From the NCBI GenBank assembly GCA_963717145.1, contig OY970325.1, forward strand, positions 3,744,001 to 3,808,000: DNA of 64,000 bases. Direction: 5' to 3'. Positions 18,167-52,445 of this stretch are shown piece after piece. The position numbers were made by a program, and so were the translations under genes. The notes under the pieces were generated by a model. The model worked only from the letters and a program-made list of their open reading frames with translations. It did not search any database and had not been told where the DNA came from. This DNA is from an uncultured Armatimonadetes bacterium. Lineage in GTDB: Bacteria; Armatimonadota; UBA5829; DTJY01. Numbering within the stretch: the first letter of the stretch is position 1; each line of letters opens with the position of its first letter.

Positions 18167-18391
18167 GTAGTGGCCGCGCCTCCGTGCCGGCCATGCGCCT
18201 CCTACCGGGACCGTCTAGTCCTGAGTATGCCGGTGAATGACGGCATGTAACGAAGGACGGTGGCATTCCGCCAGACCTCCGTGCTCCGCAAGCCGCCCTT
18301 CGTTACATGCCGTCATTCACCGGCATACTCAGGGCTGACGGGTTGCCGTTCCCGGCACACCGGAAGGCCGGCACTGAGGCACGGCCACTAC
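18167..18391. repeat. Composite repeat: GTAG-type REP pair enclosing a GTCCTGAG...CTCAGG long-hairpin element (18211-18341)
   Basis: GTAGTGGCCGCGCCTCCGTGCCGGCC at 18167, inverted copy at 18366-18391; similar composite at 20606-20867. Confidence 0.9.
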
Positions 18392-18508
18392 GTTCTGTTT
18401 CCTGCATATTCGCGTTCCACACCGCCGTTCCTGCAGGGAATGGTTGGCCTGCTACCGGTCGCAGTTCCGGCGCACGTTTGCGTTGAAAGAAAAAATGGGT
18501 AGAAGGTA

Positions 18509-18984: not shown

Positions 18985-19403
18985 TCGAAACCGCCGCCTG
19001 CCGTCCGGATTCAGGGCCGGGCGGCATCGGCGTTGTCGCGCGGAACGTCCATCCCACGGTGGCAGGCCGGATATGCGAGCAGGCATACGGCGACATCGAC
19101 GAGTTGACGTACCGGGCGGTGCTCAGAGCGCTAGACCTCGGGAAGCGTCTCCGCCTGGGACGAGTCTCCATCCTGTGTCCCGATGAGACGATCGTCAAGC
19201 AGATCAACCGCGAGTTGCCCGTCCCCCAGCAAGGCCGGATTCCCCTGCTCTACGTGAGGGTCAAGTCGCTCATGTACACCTACAGCCACGCGGAGATCAT
19301 CGCTGCCCCCGAGGGCAAAGTGCGCGCCGCCCGCAAGCTCGCGATGGCCGGAAGCAGGATTCCCATCCCCGTCAAGAAAGAGCCCCGCACGCTCTTCACC
19401 TAG
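18948..19403 (+). CDS. RNase HI-like (RVT_3) fold protein with degenerate active site
   Basis: GPGGIGVV, YRAVLRAL, IVKQIN, AARKLA follow the RNase HI pattern but catalytic acidic residues appear replaced; RBS GGAGG at 18938. Confidence 0.65.
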   Translation: MQADRLRTKDLMIETAACRPDSGPGGIGVVARNVHPTVAGRICEQAYGDIDELTYRAVLRALDLGKRLRLGRVSILCPDETIVKQINRELPVPQQGRIPLLYVRVKSLMYTYSHAEIIAAPEGKVRAARKLAMAGSRIPIPVKKEPRTLFT

Positions 19404-19450
19404 GCCCTGGGAATCATAATCATACTCATACTCCGTGGCCGGCACGGCCA

Positions 19451-19933
19451 CTACATCTCAGGCGGCCAATGCGTCTTCCGGCTGCTGGTGAGAATCCCGC
19501 CGGAGCAGCGGAATCTGGGGCCGATCCGGAGTGCGAGCGCCAGGGCGCACACGCAATCATCATGCTGCCCTCGACGCGCCTGCGTGCGGACGTGCCCCGA
19601 GTTGGTGATCTCATACTCGTAGAACTGAAGCTCCTCGATCAGCGGCTCGATGCGCGGATAGACGATCTCCTGATGAGCCAGACGGACGGCGAGGTTGTCG
19701 ATCAACTCGCGCTTTGTCTGGTCGTATGTCGGCGCAACGATCATCTGCACCGATCCGTCGAACGCCGCCGCGAACGTGGCGACATCGACCGCCGCCGCCT
19801 CGGTCTTGCCCCATCGCCGTCCGCACGCCGCCACTCTGACGGGATGGCCGTCGAGCAGCCACTCCCTCTGGCTCGGATGAGGAGTCCAGCCAAAGAGAGC
19901 CGCCGCCAGTTCAATCCTCTTCGCGGGTGTCAT
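19451..19933 (-). CDS. Internally deleted terminase large subunit (160 aa; possibly a pseudogene)
   Basis: PHPSQ, Walker A ACGRRWGKT and IVAPTYDQ joined in frame to C-terminal nuclease segment ELQFYEY...HDDCVCALALA. Confidence 0.75.
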   Translation of the reverse strand: MTPAKRIELAAALFGWTPHPSQREWLLDGHPVRVAACGRRWGKTEAAAVDVATFAAAFDGSVQMIVAPTYDQTKRELIDNLAVRLAHQEIVYPRIEPLIEELQFYEYEITNSGHVRTQARRGQHDDCVCALALALRIGPRFRCSGGILTSSRKTHWPPEM

Positions 19934-20300
19934 CGTTCACCTCCGCTATGCGATTGAGCACCGATGTGAAGCCATCGGCCTCGTCGTCGCCGGCGGAATG
20001 CTCGGCGGCGAGGAGTCCGCTGGCCTTGAGGAGATCGATGATCACCTTGTGGCGGACCTTCTCGTCGGCGGTCTTGATCATCGCCTCGAGTTCCTGGGCG
20101 GCCTCGACGACGCGCTTGCTGATGAACCTGATGGCGGTCAGGCGGTTGTCGCGCACGAAATCGCAGAGCGCCTGAGCGAACTGCGGGTCGCGCTTCCACT
20201 CGTCGAGGGTCTCGCGGTTGATCTTGAGCTTGCGAATGACCTCCTCGTCGGTGGACTGGAAGAGCAGAGCCACGGCCCTGCGCTGTTTGGGATCGAGCAT
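19911..20300 (-). CDS. HTH protein, terminase small subunit-like
   Basis: LDPKQRRAVALL...KINRETLDEWKRDPQF HTH followed by helical region; overlaps the start of the TerL-like gene. Confidence 0.7.
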   Translation of the reverse strand: MLDPKQRRAVALLFQSTDEEVIRKLKINRETLDEWKRDPQFAQALCDFVRDNRLTAIRFISKRVVEAAQELEAMIKTADEKVRHKVIIDLLKASGLLAAEHSAGDDEADGFTSVLNRIAEVNDDTREED

Positions 20301-20318
20301 GATTGATGCTGCCTTTCT

Positions 20319-20332
20319 CGAACATATGTTCG
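20319..20332. promoter_or_regulatory. LexA SOS box, perfect palindrome
   Basis: CGAACATATGTTCG matches the Gram-positive-type CGAAC-N4-GTTCG consensus and abuts the RBS of 19911-20300. Confidence 0.8.
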
Positions 20333-20490
20333 GCCTGATGATGTCTCCTCCGACCTGTCGGAGCCCTCATATTACTAGCACGCCATCCTGCCCCGAAAGA
20401 ATGAACAAACCGTGAACTCTCCCGGAAATCTTCGCCGCAATACATGCTGGTCGAAGAAAACCGCGACTTTCTTTTGCGCAAATATTTAGT

Positions 20491-20507
20491 TTGGCACGGT
20501 TCTTGCA
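20491..20507 (+). promoter_or_regulatory. sigma54 (-24/-12) promoter
   Basis: TTGGCACGGTTCTTGCA = TGGCACG-N4-TTGC consensus. Confidence 0.85.
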
Positions 20508-20517
20508 CAATACCCTA

Positions 20518-20584
20518 GTGGACAACAACATCTTTTCTCCTTCCTAATTGCCCTCCGGCGCTTTGCCGGGGGGCTCTCTTTTTT
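20518..20584 (+). ncRNA. Candidate sigma54-dependent small RNA, copy 1
   Basis: Lies between a consensus sigma54 promoter and an intrinsic terminator (GCCCTCCGGC-GCTTT-GCCGGGGGGC + T run); carries ACAACAACA and TTTTCTCCTTCCT; duplicated at 20931-20996. Confidence 0.7.
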
Positions 20585-20605
20585 GAGTGGTCTTCCCCGT
20601 CCCAT

Positions 20606-20867
20606 GTAGTGGCCGTGCCGGCCATGCGGCTCCTACCCGCGCCGTCTAGTCCTGAGTATGCCGGTGAATGACGGCATGTAACGAAGGACGGTGGCATTCC
20701 ACCAGGCCTCTGTGCTCCGCAGGCCGCCCTTCGTTACATGCCGTCATTCACCGGCACACTCAGGGTTGACGGGTTGCTGTCCCCGGCACGCCGGAAGCCG
20801 GCACGGAGGCGCGGCCGCTACGAGGCGATGCGATGGCGGAAGGCCGGCACGGAGGCACGGCCACTAC
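20606..20867. repeat. Composite REP / long-hairpin repeat separating the two sRNA candidates
   Basis: GTAG REP at 20606, hairpin element 20642-20772, inverted REPs ending near 20821 and 20867. Confidence 0.88.
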
Positions 20868-20903
20868 GAGCCGCCCGAGACGTTTTTTTGGCAAATGCGC
20901 GGA

Positions 20904-20920
20904 TTGGCACGATTCTTGCA
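20904..20920 (+). promoter_or_regulatory. sigma54 (-24/-12) promoter
   Basis: TTGGCACGATTCTTGCA. Confidence 0.85.
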
Positions 20921-20930
20921 CTATACCCTG

Positions 20931-20996
20931 GTAGACAACAACATCTTTTCTCCTTCCTAATTGCCCTCCGGCGCTTTGCCGGGGGGTTTTCTTTTT
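20931..20996 (+). ncRNA. Candidate sigma54-dependent small RNA, copy 2
   Basis: 20934-20986 identical to 20521-20573; own promoter and terminator T run. Confidence 0.7.
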
Positions 20997-21095
20997 GTAT
21001 AACCCCTCAACTTGTGGTACAATCAGCTTTGACTGGGACAGCTACCGGCCGCAGTGCCGGCGTCCGATTTATCCGACGTCGCTGAGGAGCCGTCC

Positions 21096-22052
21096 ATGAA
21101 GAAACGATACCTGCCGTACATCATCGCGCTCATCGCTATCCTGACCATCGCAACGATTCTGATCGCCGACGATTCGCCCTGGATCACCCCCGAGCCGCCC
21201 GAGTTCACCTTCATCGTCATGGGTGACAGCCGGCCCGGGCTGCCCGCTGAGGCCCAGCCGCGGATGTTCAAAGACCTCATCATGCGCGCGGATGCCTACA
21301 ACCCCGGGTTCGTGGTGCATACCGGCGATGCGATCTACGGGTCGTCGAGCCTGGGTAAGGTGCAGGAGCAGTACAAGGATTTCAAGGACGCCGTCAAGCC
21401 GCTGAGGGCGAAGCTCTACCTGACCATCGGCAATCACGAGGTGCAGAACCGGGAGGCGAACCAGACGTTCTTCGAGAAGGAGATCGGCGGGCTGTACTAC
21501 TCGTTCGACCTCAAGGGATCGCATTTCATCGTGCTCGACAGCCATATCGTCGGCGAGGCGGGTCGAATCGCGGGCAAGCAGCTCGACTGGCTCAAGGAAG
21601 ACCTGCGGAAGTCGCGGACCGCCCGGCACAGGTTCGTCTTCATCCACATGCCGCTCTACCCGGTCGACGGCCACATGGGGGCATGCCTCGATGCGCATCC
21701 CGAGGAGCGCGACGCGTTACACAAGCTGTTCATGCTCAACCGGGTCGATACCGTCTTCGTCGGGCACGAGCACTTTTTCGACGAGCAGAAGAGGAATGGC
21801 GTCCGCTACGTCATCAGCGGCGGCGCAGGGGCGCCTGTGTTCCCATCGCTGAAGGGCAAGGGCGACTTCTACCACTTTGTCATCGTGAATGTCAACGGCG
21901 ATTCGGTCAAGATGAAGGGGTTCCGCCCGGCGCAGAGAGGCCGACCGGAAGAGGAGTTCAGGATTCCGCCGGATCAGCCGCGTGTCCGAATGCCGAGTCG
22001 GTGGAAGAACTATGCCGGCGATGGCTTGTTGAAGCGCGCTAACTCGGCATAG
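21096..22052 (+). CDS. Calcineurin-like metallophosphoesterase, N-terminally anchored or secreted
   Basis: GDSR, HTGD, GNHE, FIHMP, GHEH motifs. Confidence 0.9.
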   Translation: MKKRYLPYIIALIAILTIATILIADDSPWITPEPPEFTFIVMGDSRPGLPAEAQPRMFKDLIMRADAYNPGFVVHTGDAIYGSSSLGKVQEQYKDFKDAVKPLRAKLYLTIGNHEVQNREANQTFFEKEIGGLYYSFDLKGSHFIVLDSHIVGEAGRIAGKQLDWLKEDLRKSRTARHRFVFIHMPLYPVDGHMGACLDAHPEERDALHKLFMLNRVDTVFVGHEHFFDEQKRNGVRYVISGGAGAPVFPSLKGKGDFYHFVIVNVNGDSVKMKGFRPAQRGRPEEEFRIPPDQPRVRMPSRWKNYAGDGLLKRANSA

Positions 22053-22154
22053 GCGGCCACCTGCTCCTCGATCCATCCATCGTCGCGCCGAAAGGATATG
22101 ACATGCCCCTGGAGATCAACTACCACGATATCCATGTGCAGAAGCTTATGCTAG

Positions 22155-23742
22155 CAGCCTGTCCATGAAATAACCTCTGGCGCAAGGTGCCAGGTATGTA
22201 GTAAAATACGGGTATGAGCAAGCCATACCTTCCTTATCAACCTGACCAGATATTGCTGTTGCCGCCCTTGATGTCGGAGTGGCTGCCCGAGGGACATCTC
22301 GCATACTTTGTGAGCGATGTCGTAGACAGTCTCGACCTTTCCGCGATATACGCCTCATACGAGAAAGAGGCCCGAGGAGCGCCGCCGTTCCATCCGGCAA
22401 TGCTTACAAAGATCATATTCTACGGTTTGTGCCGGGGAGTGTATTCATCTCGAAAGCTCTCCCTGGCCACGTATGAAGATGTAGCCTTCCGGGTGCTTGC
22501 GGCAGGAAATCATCCCGACTTCCGCACGATAAGCGAGTTCAGGAAGAGGCATCTCAAGTCCCTTGCGGACCTGTTTGTGCAAGTGCTCAGGCTATGCGCA
22601 AGCGCCGGGCTTGTGTCGATGAAACACATAGCCATAGACGGAACAAAGCTGCTTGCCAACGCAAGCAAGCACTCCGCCATGAGCTACTCTCGGATGGTCG
22701 AGAAAGAAAAAGAGCTTCAGGCTGAGATCGAGGCGCTCCTTGCGAAGGGTCTTTCTGTGGACGACCAGGAAGACGCGGAATATGGTCTTGACCGCCGAGG
22801 AGACGAACTCCCGGAGGAACTCGCAACCAGAGAGAAGCGGCTCGCCAAGATCAGGGAAGCAAAAGAAGCGCTGGAGCGCGAGGCCAAAGAGCGAGCATCA
22901 GCCGAAGAAGCGATGCGAGCCCAAGAGAAGGCGGAGCAGGAAGCATCCGGGAAGAAGCCTCGCGGCAGAGAGCCGGGGCCCGTAAAGACAGAGCCGGAAG
23001 GGAAGGCACAGCGGAACTTCACAGACCCGGAAAGCCGGATAATGAAGGACGCAAAGAAAGCCTTCGTGCAGGCATACAACGGACAAGCTGCGGTAGACGC
23101 AGATCATCAGATTGTAGTGGCGTGTGATCTCACGAACCAGGCAGCGGACTCACCGCATCTTAGTGACATGATCGAGGCAATCAAGGAGAACACCGGAAAG
23201 AAACCGGAAGAACTATCCGCCGATGCCGGATACTTCAGCAGCGACAACATAGAGATGGTCGAGCAGCAAGGGATCGACGCTTATATACCGCCTGACAGAC
23301 AACGTCATGGCAAAGAGCCGACGGCGCCTTCCTGCCTTGATCCGGCAAAGCAATCCGCCGCAGATCGCCAGAGAGCAAAGCTCTTGACTCCTCTTGGCCG
23401 AAAGATCTACGGGAGGCGGAAGGAGACGGTAGAGCCGGTGTTCGGCCAGATCAAGAGCGCACGGAACTTCCGAGGCTTCCTACTCCGAGGCCTTGCGAAA
23501 GCGAAGTCGGAGTGGACGCTTGCGTGTCTTGGGCACAACATGCTGAAGCTATACCGATACGGCGACCGGAAATCGATCTTCGATACGTAGATATATGACC
23601 TGGATCAGGCTGATTATCAAGGTACAAGGGGTCTTTACAGACCCTCGCCGGAAATCCGGCGAAAAACACTATCGAACAGCAGCCAGCGCGACCCCGCAGA
23701 TGGGAAACTCACCCACATAGCGGGGAATTCTCAGACAGGCTG
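22155..23742 (+). mobile_element. IS1182-family insertion sequence
   Basis: CAGCCTGTC...GACAGGCTG inverted ends flanked by CTAG at 22151-22154 and 23743-23746. Confidence 0.9.
22214..23590 (+). CDS. IS1182 family transposase
   Basis: PDFRTISEFR, AIDGTKLLANAS, NFTDPESRIM, ADAGYFS, RKETVEPVFGQIK motifs. Confidence 0.95.
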   Translation: MSKPYLPYQPDQILLLPPLMSEWLPEGHLAYFVSDVVDSLDLSAIYASYEKEARGAPPFHPAMLTKIIFYGLCRGVYSSRKLSLATYEDVAFRVLAAGNHPDFRTISEFRKRHLKSLADLFVQVLRLCASAGLVSMKHIAIDGTKLLANASKHSAMSYSRMVEKEKELQAEIEALLAKGLSVDDQEDAEYGLDRRGDELPEELATREKRLAKIREAKEALEREAKERASAEEAMRAQEKAEQEASGKKPRGREPGPVKTEPEGKAQRNFTDPESRIMKDAKKAFVQAYNGQAAVDADHQIVVACDLTNQAADSPHLSDMIEAIKENTGKKPEELSADAGYFSSDNIEMVEQQGIDAYIPPDRQRHGKEPTAPSCLDPAKQSAADRQRAKLLTPLGRKIYGRRKETVEPVFGQIKSARNFRGFLLRGLAKAKSEWTLACLGHNMLKLYRYGDRKSIFDT

Positions 23743-31042: not shown

Positions 31043-31058
31043 TGGCACGATTCTTGAA
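31043..31058 (+). promoter_or_regulatory. Probable sigma54 promoter
   Basis: TGGCACGATTCTTGAA, one mismatch at -12, same spacer as the 20904 promoter. Confidence 0.6.
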
Positions 31059-31133: not shown

Positions 31134-31472
31134 ATGAAGACCATACAGTCCCCAGCAGCCGCCAGAACGGGAGCCGTTATCAGCGCAGAGAGCATCGCCA
31201 TCATGGCCATATGCATGGCAGACCTCGTATCCACGATATGGCTGCTGGCGGCGGGACTCGCGACCGAGGCGAACCCTCTGATGGCTCGTCTGCTGAGTCA
31301 CAGCCCGCTTCTGTTCTGCACGGTGAAGATGGGAACCGTAACCTGCCTGGTGACCGTGACTGAGTGGTACAAGAAACACAACCCAACGTTCGTGCGCAAC
31401 GTGATGCGGGCCGCTATCGCATCGTATCTGGCGATCTATTTCATACTTGTCTTCGGCATTAACTGGGCTTAA
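31134..31472 (+). CDS. Small membrane protein, DUF5658-like
   Basis: ADLVST...EANPLM...F..VK pattern with three hydrophobic segments. Confidence 0.75.
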   Translation: MKTIQSPAAARTGAVISAESIAIMAICMADLVSTIWLLAAGLATEANPLMARLLSHSPLLFCTVKMGTVTCLVTVTEWYKKHNPTFVRNVMRAAIASYLAIYFILVFGINWA

Positions 31473-36682: not shown

Positions 36683-36715
36683 TGGTTCATGGGGGATGGG
36701 TGTTGGGTCTTAGAA

Positions 36716-36847
36716 CCCGCTAGTCCTGAGTGCGCCGGTGAATGACGGCGTGTATCGAAGGACGGCCTGCGAAGCACCAACCCCTGGCTGCGGGCGACCG
36801 TCCTTCGATACACGCCGTCATTCACCGGCGCACTCAGGACTAGCGGG
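36716..36847. repeat. GTCCTGAG...CTCAGGAC long-hairpin element
   Basis: About 50-bp inverted arms; same family as 18211, 20642 and 33232. Confidence 0.9.
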
Positions 36848-39602: not shown

Positions 39603-39827
39603 TGGCCGCGCCTCCGTGCCGGCCATGCAACGTGGCGTAGTGGCCGTGCCTCCGTGCCGGCCATCCGACGTGGCGTAGTGGCCGTGCCTCCGTGCCGGCC
39701 ATCCGACGTGGCGTAGTGGCCGTGCCTCCGTGCCGGCCATGCAACGTGGCGTAGTGGCCGTGCCTCCGTGCCGGCCATGCCGAGCTGACGGTAACATCGA
39801 TGGCCGGGACTGAGCCACGGCCACTAC
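39599..39827. repeat. GTAG-family REP array: five tandem units at 38-nt period plus one inverted variant
   Basis: GTAGTGGCCGYGCCTCCGTGCCGGCCAT at 39599, 39637, 39675, 39713, 39751. Confidence 0.93.
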
Positions 39828-52351: not shown

Positions 52352-52370
52352 TCTTTGTCCTCCTGCGAAG

Positions 52371-52445
52371 AAAAAGACCCCGGCCACAGAATGACCGGGG
52401 CAAGTCCGGAAAGGAGAAAAGGAGAAAACGCGTTGCTTTCCATCC
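52371..52445 (-). ncRNA. Candidate small RNA or terminated leader resembling the 20.5/20.9-kb pair
   Basis: Minus strand reads TTTTCTCCTTTTCTCCTTTCC-GGAC-TTGCCCCGG..GGCCGGGGTCTTTTT; upstream CTAAC-N16-GCCAATAA resembles a sigma28 promoter. Confidence 0.45.

Follow-up and report, generated by a model that had tools for sequence, protein, structure and literature searches.

A 64,000-nucleotide (nt) stretch of the genome of an uncultured Armatimonadetes bacterium (GenBank assembly GCA_963717145.1, contig OY970325.1) contains two short sibling units that are probably independent genes for trans-acting RNAs of approximately 65-70 nt, which would silence the mRNAs of PEP-CTERM surface proteins under the control of sigma-54 and an enhancer-binding protein here called EBP-A. 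This stretch, the window, corresponds to C1:3744001-3808000 of the source genome (coded G000; 5.37 Mb, 60.6% G+C). The parts of this reading differ in strength. Judged by their sequence features, the units very likely encode genuine sigma-54-dependent base-pairing small RNAs; that PEP-CTERM mRNAs are their main targets is a proposition on which we are nearly evenly divided, leaning slightly against.

The two units occupy positions 20492-20584 and 20905-20996 of the window, and each is made up of a sigma-54 promoter, a body and a hairpin followed by a T-run. Both promoter 16-mers fit the sigma-54 consensus TGGCAC-N5-TTGCA exactly and are the only exact matches in the window; with up to one mismatch the pattern occurs three times in the 64 kb against 0.58 expected, a count reached by 5 of 100 shuffled sequences. 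The +1 G is predicted 12 nt past the C of the -12 GC, at 20518 in copy 1 and 20931 in copy 2. In a pairwise alignment the 53-nt body (GACAAC...GGGGGG) is 100% identical between the copies (20521-20573 and 20934-20986), and a terminator scan of 20300-21150 returned only two sites, 20550-20574 and 20963-20987, with a T-run after each; a promoter scan of the same interval detected no sigma-70-like promoter. An earlier interpretation made from the letters alone (the sequence-only reading) had described the same promoter, +1 G, body and terminator for each copy, and the alignment and terminator scan place them where it did. It had also let the similarity stop just outside the units, which needs correction on the promoter side: a repeat search finds a direct repeat of 112 nt with 88% identity (20472-20583 and 20885-20996, spaced 413 nt apart) that extends approximately 20 nt 5' of the promoter, with patchy identity out to about -50. 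Its remark that no start codon is conserved stands, since copy 1 begins with GTG and copy 2 with GTA, and the list of open reading frames (ORFs) holds no frame common to both copies on either strand.

The minimum free energy fold of copy 1 consists of an open 5' half and a single terminator hairpin (z -3.78), and that of copy 2 is dominated by the terminator and likewise leaves the seed open (z -3.59). The minus strand at both copies reads GGAAGGAGAAAAGATG, that is, a Shine-Dalgarno sequence, a spacer and ATG. The unpaired, ribosome-binding-site-complementary tract of the sequence-only reading is thus recovered in the folds. Alignment of 26 short forms of the RNA reveals an invariant UCUCCUU within the context (C)AUCUUUU(U)CUCCUUC(C/U), followed by a variable linker and one hairpin. 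Read backwards, the seed becomes GGAAGGAGAAAA(A)GAUG: Shine-Dalgarno, purine-rich spacer and start codon. In the RNAalifold consensus of the 26 short forms only the terminator is paired, with 8/8 pairs kept and 7/8 showing compensatory changes, and the CU-rich seed is unpaired. A further 19 long forms (from the groups f3 and f4) carry an additional, variable middle hairpin and an invariant GUGUUGUGG four bases 3' of the seed, which is unpaired in their consensus; compensatory changes affect 5/9 pairs of their terminator. In some long forms (e.g. L015:1528-1634 and L010:1516-1620) GUGUUGUGG could pair with an ACAACA 5' of the seed and thereby place the seed in a loop. By sequence criteria the units have the make-up of intrinsically terminated, trans-acting base-pairing RNAs, with a promoter and terminator of their own, no conserved ORF, an unpaired seed and variable neighbours.

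A covariance model of the RNA only (R1), built from the 26 transcribed regions (alignment A3), matches eight places in the source genome. Copies 1 and 2 score 63.7 bits (E 1.5e-12) and 60.8 bits, a second tandem pair at C1:4.126 Mb, with the same promoter and a similar seed, scores 63.1 and 60.2 bits, and a longer variant at 4.341 Mb scores 32 bits; two weak matches (approximately 22 bits) also lie behind sigma-54 promoters. A BLAST search with one unit matched 21 of 60 relatives, where family members are preceded by the same type of 16-mer promoter. The combination of promoter and seed (TGGCAY-N5-TTGC-N18-36-TCTCCTTC) is present in 36 of the 52 relatives of the same class (7/10, 6/6, 5/6, 18/28 and 0/2 in the groups f1 to f5), and elsewhere in the phylum in 5 of 348 genomes, all five without the conserved ACATCTTTT context; a reversed-pattern control gave two matches. 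At E <=0.001, R1 matches 41 of the 52 class relatives with up to seven copies per genome, and a sigma-54-promoted member is found in one f5 genome. Tandem arrays in which every unit has its own promoter and terminator recur in G001, G006, G007 and others. BLAST, pattern and covariance model agree on a class-wide, multicopy promoter-seed-terminator unit, the conservation to which the sequence-only reading had looked.

In a second draw of genomes R1 matched 10 of 13 members of the class and 7 of 137 others, the latter with single weak matches. Six of these seven were read and rejected: in three the match is a different RNA-like unit that carries CACCUCCUUUC and a terminator and has no sigma-54 promoter, in two it is a terminator following a coding region, and in one no terminator is present. 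Among the genomes searched there is no convincing family member outside the class, and as far as the search extends the multicopy family is confined to one class of Armatimonadota. Three loci in another family of the phylum (L248, L249 and L252 in G071, G131 and G096) share a conserved unit in which GCGUGAAACCUCAUUUUCACCUCCUUUCGUAGCG and a terminator follow a sigma-70-like promoter; this is apparently a separate anti-Shine-Dalgarno small RNA with no relation to the present one. No family of Rfam 15 reaches its gathering score in the window, as expected from the sequence-only reading, which had not recognised the RNA, and none matches the RNA at gathering score in 20 loci that represent short, long and variant members. 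Below threshold, eight matches with E <=10 were recorded in 19000-23000, the best of them RsaOG (RF01775; 25.4 bits against a gathering score of 50, most of the model being skipped) and mmgR/suhB (RF00519; 19.2 and 16.6 bits against 41). The sole Rfam match in the 20 loci is an unrelated cyclic di-GMP-I riboswitch (L005:1218-1312, minus strand, in G035; 66 bits), which is located between a long-form small-RNA gene and flgM on the same strand.

Table 1. Features of the two small-RNA units and of related or neighbouring elements in the window
Feature	Position	Strand	Remarks
Sigma-54 promoter, copy 1 (TGGCACGGTTCTTGCA)	20492..20507	+	GG 20493-94, GC 20505-06; exact consensus
Sigma-54 promoter, copy 2 (TGGCACGATTCTTGCA)	20905..20920	+	Exact consensus
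Predicted small RNA, copy 1	20518..20584	+	~67 nt; 5' end deduced from promoter geometry
Predicted small RNA, copy 2	20931..20996	+	~66 nt
Seed, copy 1 (CATCTTTTCTCCTTCC)	20529..20544	+	Reverse complement of GGAAGGAGAAAAGATG
Seed, copy 2	20942..20957	+	Identical to the copy 1 seed (sequence, pairwise alignment)
Intrinsic terminator, copy 1	20550..20584	+	Stem-loop 20550-20574, then TCTCTTTTTT
Intrinsic terminator, copy 2	20963..20996	+	Stem-loop 20963-20987, then T-run
Third, diverged family member	52369..52443	-	GGAAAGCAACGCG-UUUUCUCCUUUUCUCCUUUCC plus terminator; R1 36.2 bits, E 1.6e-5
Palindromic interspersed repeat between the copies	20642..20773		~130 nt, 41-nt inverted arms; MITE-like (miniature inverted-repeat transposable element) or REP-like (repetitive extragenic palindrome)

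The distribution of the units follows that of sigma-54. The rpoN gene is present in all 36 pattern-positive relatives, and the pattern is absent from all seven class genomes without an acceptable rpoN match (six with no match, and G024 with one below the cut-off). The source genome encodes two rpoN genes, one of them at C1:2168979, in keeping with the sigma-54 control proposed in the sequence-only reading, and three true enhancer-binding proteins, EBP-A, EBP-B and EBP-C. The promoters fall into two dialects. One, TGGCAC-N5-ATTGCT, stands before flagellar genes (FlgB, FliN) and adjoins rpoN-2 and EBP-C, an activator with a helix-turn-helix (HTH) domain; the region C1:242740-270000 unites the second rpoN, the HTH activator with a kinase, and the promoters with the ATTGCT -12 element before FlgB and FliN. 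The other, TGGCA(C/T)G-N4-CTTGCA, is found in front of the small-RNA units and of genes encoding secreted proteins; 8 of 17 ORFs tested downstream of such promoters reach the PEP-CTERM cut-off (TIGR02595). Two sigma-54 systems with separable promoter dialects thus coexist in one genome. Further promoters of the small-RNA type are found at C1:1523043(+), 2151822(+), 3591340(-), 3605552(-) and 4067746(-). Those at 1523043 and 2151822 are followed by terminated units devoid of ORFs, one with UUUUCUUCUUCUUUACCUUUC and the other with a partly paired CUCCUUCC; the remaining three have no ORF call nearby or resemble C1:1523043. The sigma-54 regulon probably holds several RNA families.

Gene content and domain make-up point to EBP-A as the likely activator of the RNAs. 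EBP-A (C1:3047975-3049174) comprises a receiver, an AAA+ sigma-54 domain and a lid, with which (residue 398 of 400) the protein ends; HTH_8 is absent, and EBP-A is an enhancer-binding protein that lacks a DNA-binding domain. Its gene is flanked by genes for a histidine kinase and a receiver-PilZ protein. Orthologues with 59-91% identity over their full length, mostly of approximately 400-430 amino acids, occur in 43 of the 52 relatives, including 39 of the 41 that are R1-positive. Four f2 genomes (G011, G013, G015 and G017; 96-98% complete) are particularly informative: each has a single rpoN and a single PF00158 protein, which is the EBP-A orthologue, and all four carry sigma-54-promoted RNA copies, so that EBP-A must be the activator there, provided that the promoters work. 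In G011 (C12:56999-63013) and G013 (C1:1205761-1211793) the EBP-A orthologue lies 4-5 kb from an exosortase gene; in G000 the two are 1.7 Mb apart.

The search for targets began with the 33-nt 5' half of the RNA on 24,815 candidate starts, a scan so noisy, with implausibly strong duplexes on spurious ORFs, that it was replaced by one of the 23-nt seed against a thinned set of 3907 ORFs. In the latter, duplexes with the 54 PEP-CTERM genes have a mean energy of -14.4 kcal/mol, compared with -10.7 kcal/mol for the rest (p 5e-8), and the best 79 start-site duplexes include 15 PEP-CTERM genes. The reversed seed places two PEP-CTERM genes in the top 79, and a 16S-like anti-Shine-Dalgarno sequence, entered from general knowledge, places four; with fully shuffled seeds (n=33) the mean is 1.2 and the maximum 6, and with shuffled seeds in which the CUCCUUCC core is preserved (n=33) the mean is 3.2 and the maximum 8. 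The pairing typically spans 14-17 nt through the AUG. The PEP-CTERM genes divide according to their own promoters: the 11 of 54 with a sigma-54 promoter within 400 nt average -11.1 kcal/mol, approximately the genome average, the 43 without one average -15.3 kcal/mol, and the best 21 PEP-CTERM duplexes all fall on genes without one. Among the top predicted targets are the genes that start at C1:2047708, 148459, 956455 and 4376859; sigma-54-driven PEP-CTERM genes include those at C1:4497609 and 3055462. Sites downstream of sigma-54 promoters in general (16 ORF starts and one mis-set stop-codon site) display a weak trend towards stronger pairing (-11.9 versus -10.4 kcal/mol, p 0.019), which is reversed among PEP-CTERM genes. 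Nothing outstanding was seen among the flagellar genes at 236-300 kb, where the best duplexes, of -21.0 and -19.3 kcal/mol, are on ORFs of 116 and 362 amino acids.

Across the relatives, the complement of the 17-mer seed with up to two mismatches matches 210 times in 53 genomes, compared with 36 matches of a reversed control. Among the first 21 sites inspected, 17 are further small-RNA genes read antisense, several of them without a sigma-54 promoter. Another 29 of the inspected sites are ORF starts in RNA-bearing genomes, and 19 of these belong to PEP-CTERM genes, an assignment which rests on hidden Markov model (HMM) scores at the curated cut-off (TIGR02595, >=16 bits) for 10 of the 17 tested and on the motif alone for nine more. 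PEP-CTERM seed matches recur in ten genomes other than G000, and none of the 19 PEP-CTERM sites has a sigma-54-like promoter within approximately 400 nt upstream. In G003 and G008, from which the RNA is absent, none of the four matching ORF starts is PEP-CTERM; they belong to unrelated proteins. Exosortase is encoded in 47 of the 52 relatives, including 40 of the 41 R1-positive ones. The five exosortase-negative genomes also lack rpoN and EBP-A; four of them have no R1 match, and the fifth (G046) has one weak match of 28.4 bits with no sigma-54 promoter.

In the mechanism that we propose, transcription of the units would require sigma-54 together with EBP-A, an NtrC-type response regulator without a DNA-binding domain. 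The RNA would comprise a single-stranded 5' half (CAUCUUUUCUCCUUCC) and one terminator hairpin, and the 5' half would pair with the Shine-Dalgarno sequence, the purine-rich spacer and the AUG of mRNAs, thus blocking the binding of the 30S subunit, possibly with a role for Hfq. The preferred targets would be mRNAs of PEP-CTERM (exosortase-sorted) surface proteins without sigma-54 promoters; PEP-CTERM genes that are themselves driven by sigma-54 match the seed poorly. With direct promoters on one PEP-CTERM set and RNAs against the other, an active EBP-A would turn on the first and silence the second. More tentatively, and in our judgement less likely than not, a single two-component sigma-54 switch may exchange the surface coat throughout the class, the 16-18-nt seed mirroring the start region of the sigma-54-independent PEP-CTERM genes. 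If so, the RNAs would have evolved in step with the start regions of a gene family whose members have only their sorting signal as a common definition, and in the long forms GUGUUGUGG would serve as a further functional module. Overall, the sibling family with an anti-Shine-Dalgarno seed under sigma-54 control that the sequence-only reading put forward is supported by the Rfam, rpoN, conservation, covariation and folding results, and it is extended here by a larger family, a seed that also covers spacer and start codon, the implication of EBP-A, a promoter class that also drives a subset of PEP-CTERM genes, and PEP-CTERM mRNAs as proposed targets.

Several observations weigh against the proposal. 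Of 20 sequencing runs listed in a run search, none is recorded as RNA. Some family members have no sigma-54 promoter (e.g. window 52369-52443, and several in relatives), and G036, G037 and G045 possess EBP-A and rpoN but no R1 match. EBP-B, the third activator of G000, has an HTH domain and could drive the promoters instead. No conserved upstream activator site emerges from 27 G000 promoters aligned on their -24 element, where a weak T-rich patch approximately 20 nt upstream and a preference for GAT before TGG are the features seen; palindrome-like elements sit beside -24 in some relatives. The missing site would fit an activator that does not bind DNA, this being negative evidence only. On the side of the targets, the 3907 ORFs are crude calls of our own, and the 54 PEP-CTERM genes were picked out with a regular expression, which retrieves all eight HMM-positives and sets a lower bar than the HMM. 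Between the PEP-CTERM genes that have a sigma-54 promoter and those that do not, the pairing energies differ modestly (two-sided p 0.017, n=11 versus 43), and the 61 of 210 matches inspected in relatives were hand-picked from the rows listed and are a non-random sample. Two arrays of paralogues supply at least 5 of the 15 top PEP-CTERM genes, and neither the 15 nor the 19 are independent events because PEP-CTERM paralogues share their 5' regions by descent. Any CU-rich RNA, moreover, favours strong Shine-Dalgarno sites, and PEP-CTERM genes also score somewhat better with the shuffled, reversed and 16S-like controls.

These last points lead to the most serious rival explanation, which we consider unlikely rather than far-fetched: the sigma-54 RNAs might be general anti-Shine-Dalgarno dampers, or regulators of other targets, and the PEP-CTERM signal a reflection of strong, purine-rich translation starts. 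PEP-CTERM start regions are indeed A-rich, control seeds slightly favour these genes (by -0.1 to -2.3 kcal/mol for full shuffles and -1.1 kcal/mol for the 16S-like sequence), several top duplexes in G000 fall on other genes, and of the 29 ORF starts in relatives with the best matches, 10 lie outside the PEP-CTERM set (e.g. an anti-sigma antagonist and other secreted proteins). A general preference of this kind sits poorly with the count of 15 in 79 for the real seed, where none of 66 shuffles, those that keep CUCCUUCC included, exceeds 8, and with the recurrence of the PEP-CTERM result in ten other genomes. That the RNA instead acts by binding a protein, sequestering Hfq, ribosomal protein S1 or some other pyrimidine binder, is a good deal less probable again. 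Hfq and S1 typically bind U/C-rich single strands next to a terminator, genes for Hfq and CsrA are present in the genome, and the long forms add a second invariant, unpaired box; yet the conserved stretch contains a CAU opposite the AUG and keeps the register of real start regions over 14-17 nt, and is therefore more than a mere pyrimidine tract, which would require neither.

The genomic setting invites other readings in which the base-pairing RNA would have no part. It is very improbable that the units act in cis, each as a leader with promoter and attenuator for the gene that follows. Copy 2 ends approximately 100 nt before a metallophosphoesterase gene on the same strand (21097-22052), the second G000 pair ends approximately 40 nt before a gene for a PHP phosphoesterase, and G001 also has a metallophosphoesterase downstream; but across 24 scanned units the downstream genes differ (Metallophos, PFK three times, FlgM, TilS, PHP, opposite-strand methyltransferases, and 13 without a family), and at the level of the class there is no conserved neighbour. 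In addition, the tandem units have a promoter and a strong terminator each, beyond copy 1 lie a repeat element and copy 2 instead of a gene, and what is conserved is the seed and not a leader structure. Equally improbable are silent relics, that is, orphan promoters and terminators multiplied by duplication where mobile elements have left their marks: the locus does lie among interspersed repeats, a transposase gene and fragments whose family matches are weak or absent, but the seed is conserved throughout the class, the stems show compensatory changes, and the units co-occur with rpoN and EBP-A. Least credible of all is a translation start for a small protein on the opposite strand. The minus strand offers a perfect Shine-Dalgarno sequence, spacer and ATG at both copies, and at copy 1 its ATG opens a frame of 54 amino acids at 20531; at copy 2, however, no frame of >=20 amino acids is listed and direct reading meets a stop after seven codons. 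In relatives the distance between seed and promoter varies by non-multiples of three through unconserved sequence, the frames at such sites measure 2 to 55 codons and are unrelated to one another, and the terminators are oriented to the plus strand. Set against these alternatives, trans-acting RNAs directed at translation starts are the reading that we prefer.

As to the surroundings, the 413-nt spacing of the copies is due to the insertion of the palindromic element between them (Table 1). This element does not belong to the RNA genes; counted over both strands it matches the genome 83 times, and it recurs in the window at about 18182-18392, 36714-36843 and 39636-39775. Remains of mobile elements flank the locus at 19451-20300 (minus strand) and 22214-23590 (plus strand), with a 129-amino-acid frame that has a sub-threshold match to an insertion-element HTH domain, a 160-amino-acid frame without a family, and an intact DDE transposase gene. 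The third, diverged family member has a doubled CU tract (UUUUCUCCUUUUCUCCUUUCC) and an AT-rich, -10-like box upstream in place of a sigma-54 promoter, and a gene starts 22 nt past the end of its model match. A sigma-54-like promoter with a spoiled -12 element (TGGCACGATTCTTGAA) is located at 31043-31058 (plus strand); approximately 75 nt further on, the ATG at 31135 begins a frame with membrane-protein-like first residues.

The arrangement is reminiscent of several known systems. The Qrr RNAs of the Vibrionaceae, controlled by sigma-54 and LuxO, are likewise encoded by several sibling genes with their own sigma-54 promoters and terminators under an NtrC-type regulator, and pair through a conserved single-stranded region with mRNA start regions. 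Qrr RNAs are approximately 100 nt long with four stem-loops, whereas the RNAs described here have approximately 65 nt and one hairpin and differ in seed, phylum and proposed targets. LuxO has a DNA-binding domain, which EBP-A lacks, and all three G000 activators score 334-384 bits with the LuxO model, against a cut-off of 800. There is no Qrr among the eight sub-threshold Rfam hits; the resemblance is one of mechanism and not of homology. The LhrC RNAs of Listeria are multicopy and partly tandem, respond to the LisRK two-component system and block the ribosome-binding sites of surface and envelope mRNAs with CU-rich tracts; their pairing motifs are short UCCC stretches in loops and their promoter is of the sigma-A type, in contrast to the one long, linear 5' seed reaching from Shine-Dalgarno to AUG and the sigma-54 promoter found here, and the Rfam scans gave no LhrC hit. 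mmgR/suhB, one of the closest Rfam models, and other alphaproteobacterial anti-Shine-Dalgarno RNAs share the unpaired CU-rich tract followed by a terminator, but the match is below the gathering score, phylum and promoter differ, and the new RNA is not a member of that family. Enterobacterial GlmY and GlmZ and a flagellar RNA of Campylobacter also have -24/-12 promoters under a dedicated activator; GlmY acts as a decoy and GlmZ as an activator, the sequences are unrelated and the mechanisms are others, and none of these RNAs is a family with an anti-start-site seed.

The closest parallel on the side of the proposed targets is the PrsK/PrsR system. The relevant passages describe single-gene PEP-CTERM operons with a sigma-54 promoter and PrsK/PrsR, the latter a two-component enhancer-binding regulator (Haft et al. 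2006, PMC1569441; Rajeev et al. 2011, PMC3333781), so that sigma-54 promoters upstream of PEP-CTERM genes, a two-component regulator and a link to exosortase are common to both. The 2006 paper confines these motifs, within the PEP-CTERM species that it discusses, to the Proteobacteria, and it associates the upstream activator site with a Fis-type DNA-binding regulator (PMC1569441). In Desulfovibrio vulgaris separate regulators serve a small RNA and the PEP-CTERM genes, and the passages in question draw no link between RNA and PEP-CTERM (PMC3333781). The present case differs in belonging to the Armatimonadota, in having small RNAs in the regulon, and in a candidate activator without a DNA-binding domain; no activator of G000 reaches the PrsR cut-off (TIGR02915; 400-407 bits against 502.6, EBP-A scoring 401.2 bits).

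According to Haft et al., there was in 2006 no experimental evidence as to where in the cell any PEP-CTERM protein is located, and further regulators were still to be found (PMC1569441). Full-text searches of the open-access literature turned up no work on regulatory RNAs of Armatimonadota, nor any that connects PEP-CTERM or exosortase genes with a small RNA. The Armatimonadota are a widespread phylum of soils, sediments and reactors. The covariance model can be used to annotate the RNAs in metagenome-assembled genomes and to find them in metatranscriptomes. If the model of their action is true, these RNAs would be the first RNA regulator family for the phylum, they would provide a handle on what controls PEP-CTERM surface proteins, and they would illustrate cleanly how one small-RNA seed can be matched to the start region that an entire family of paralogues has in common.

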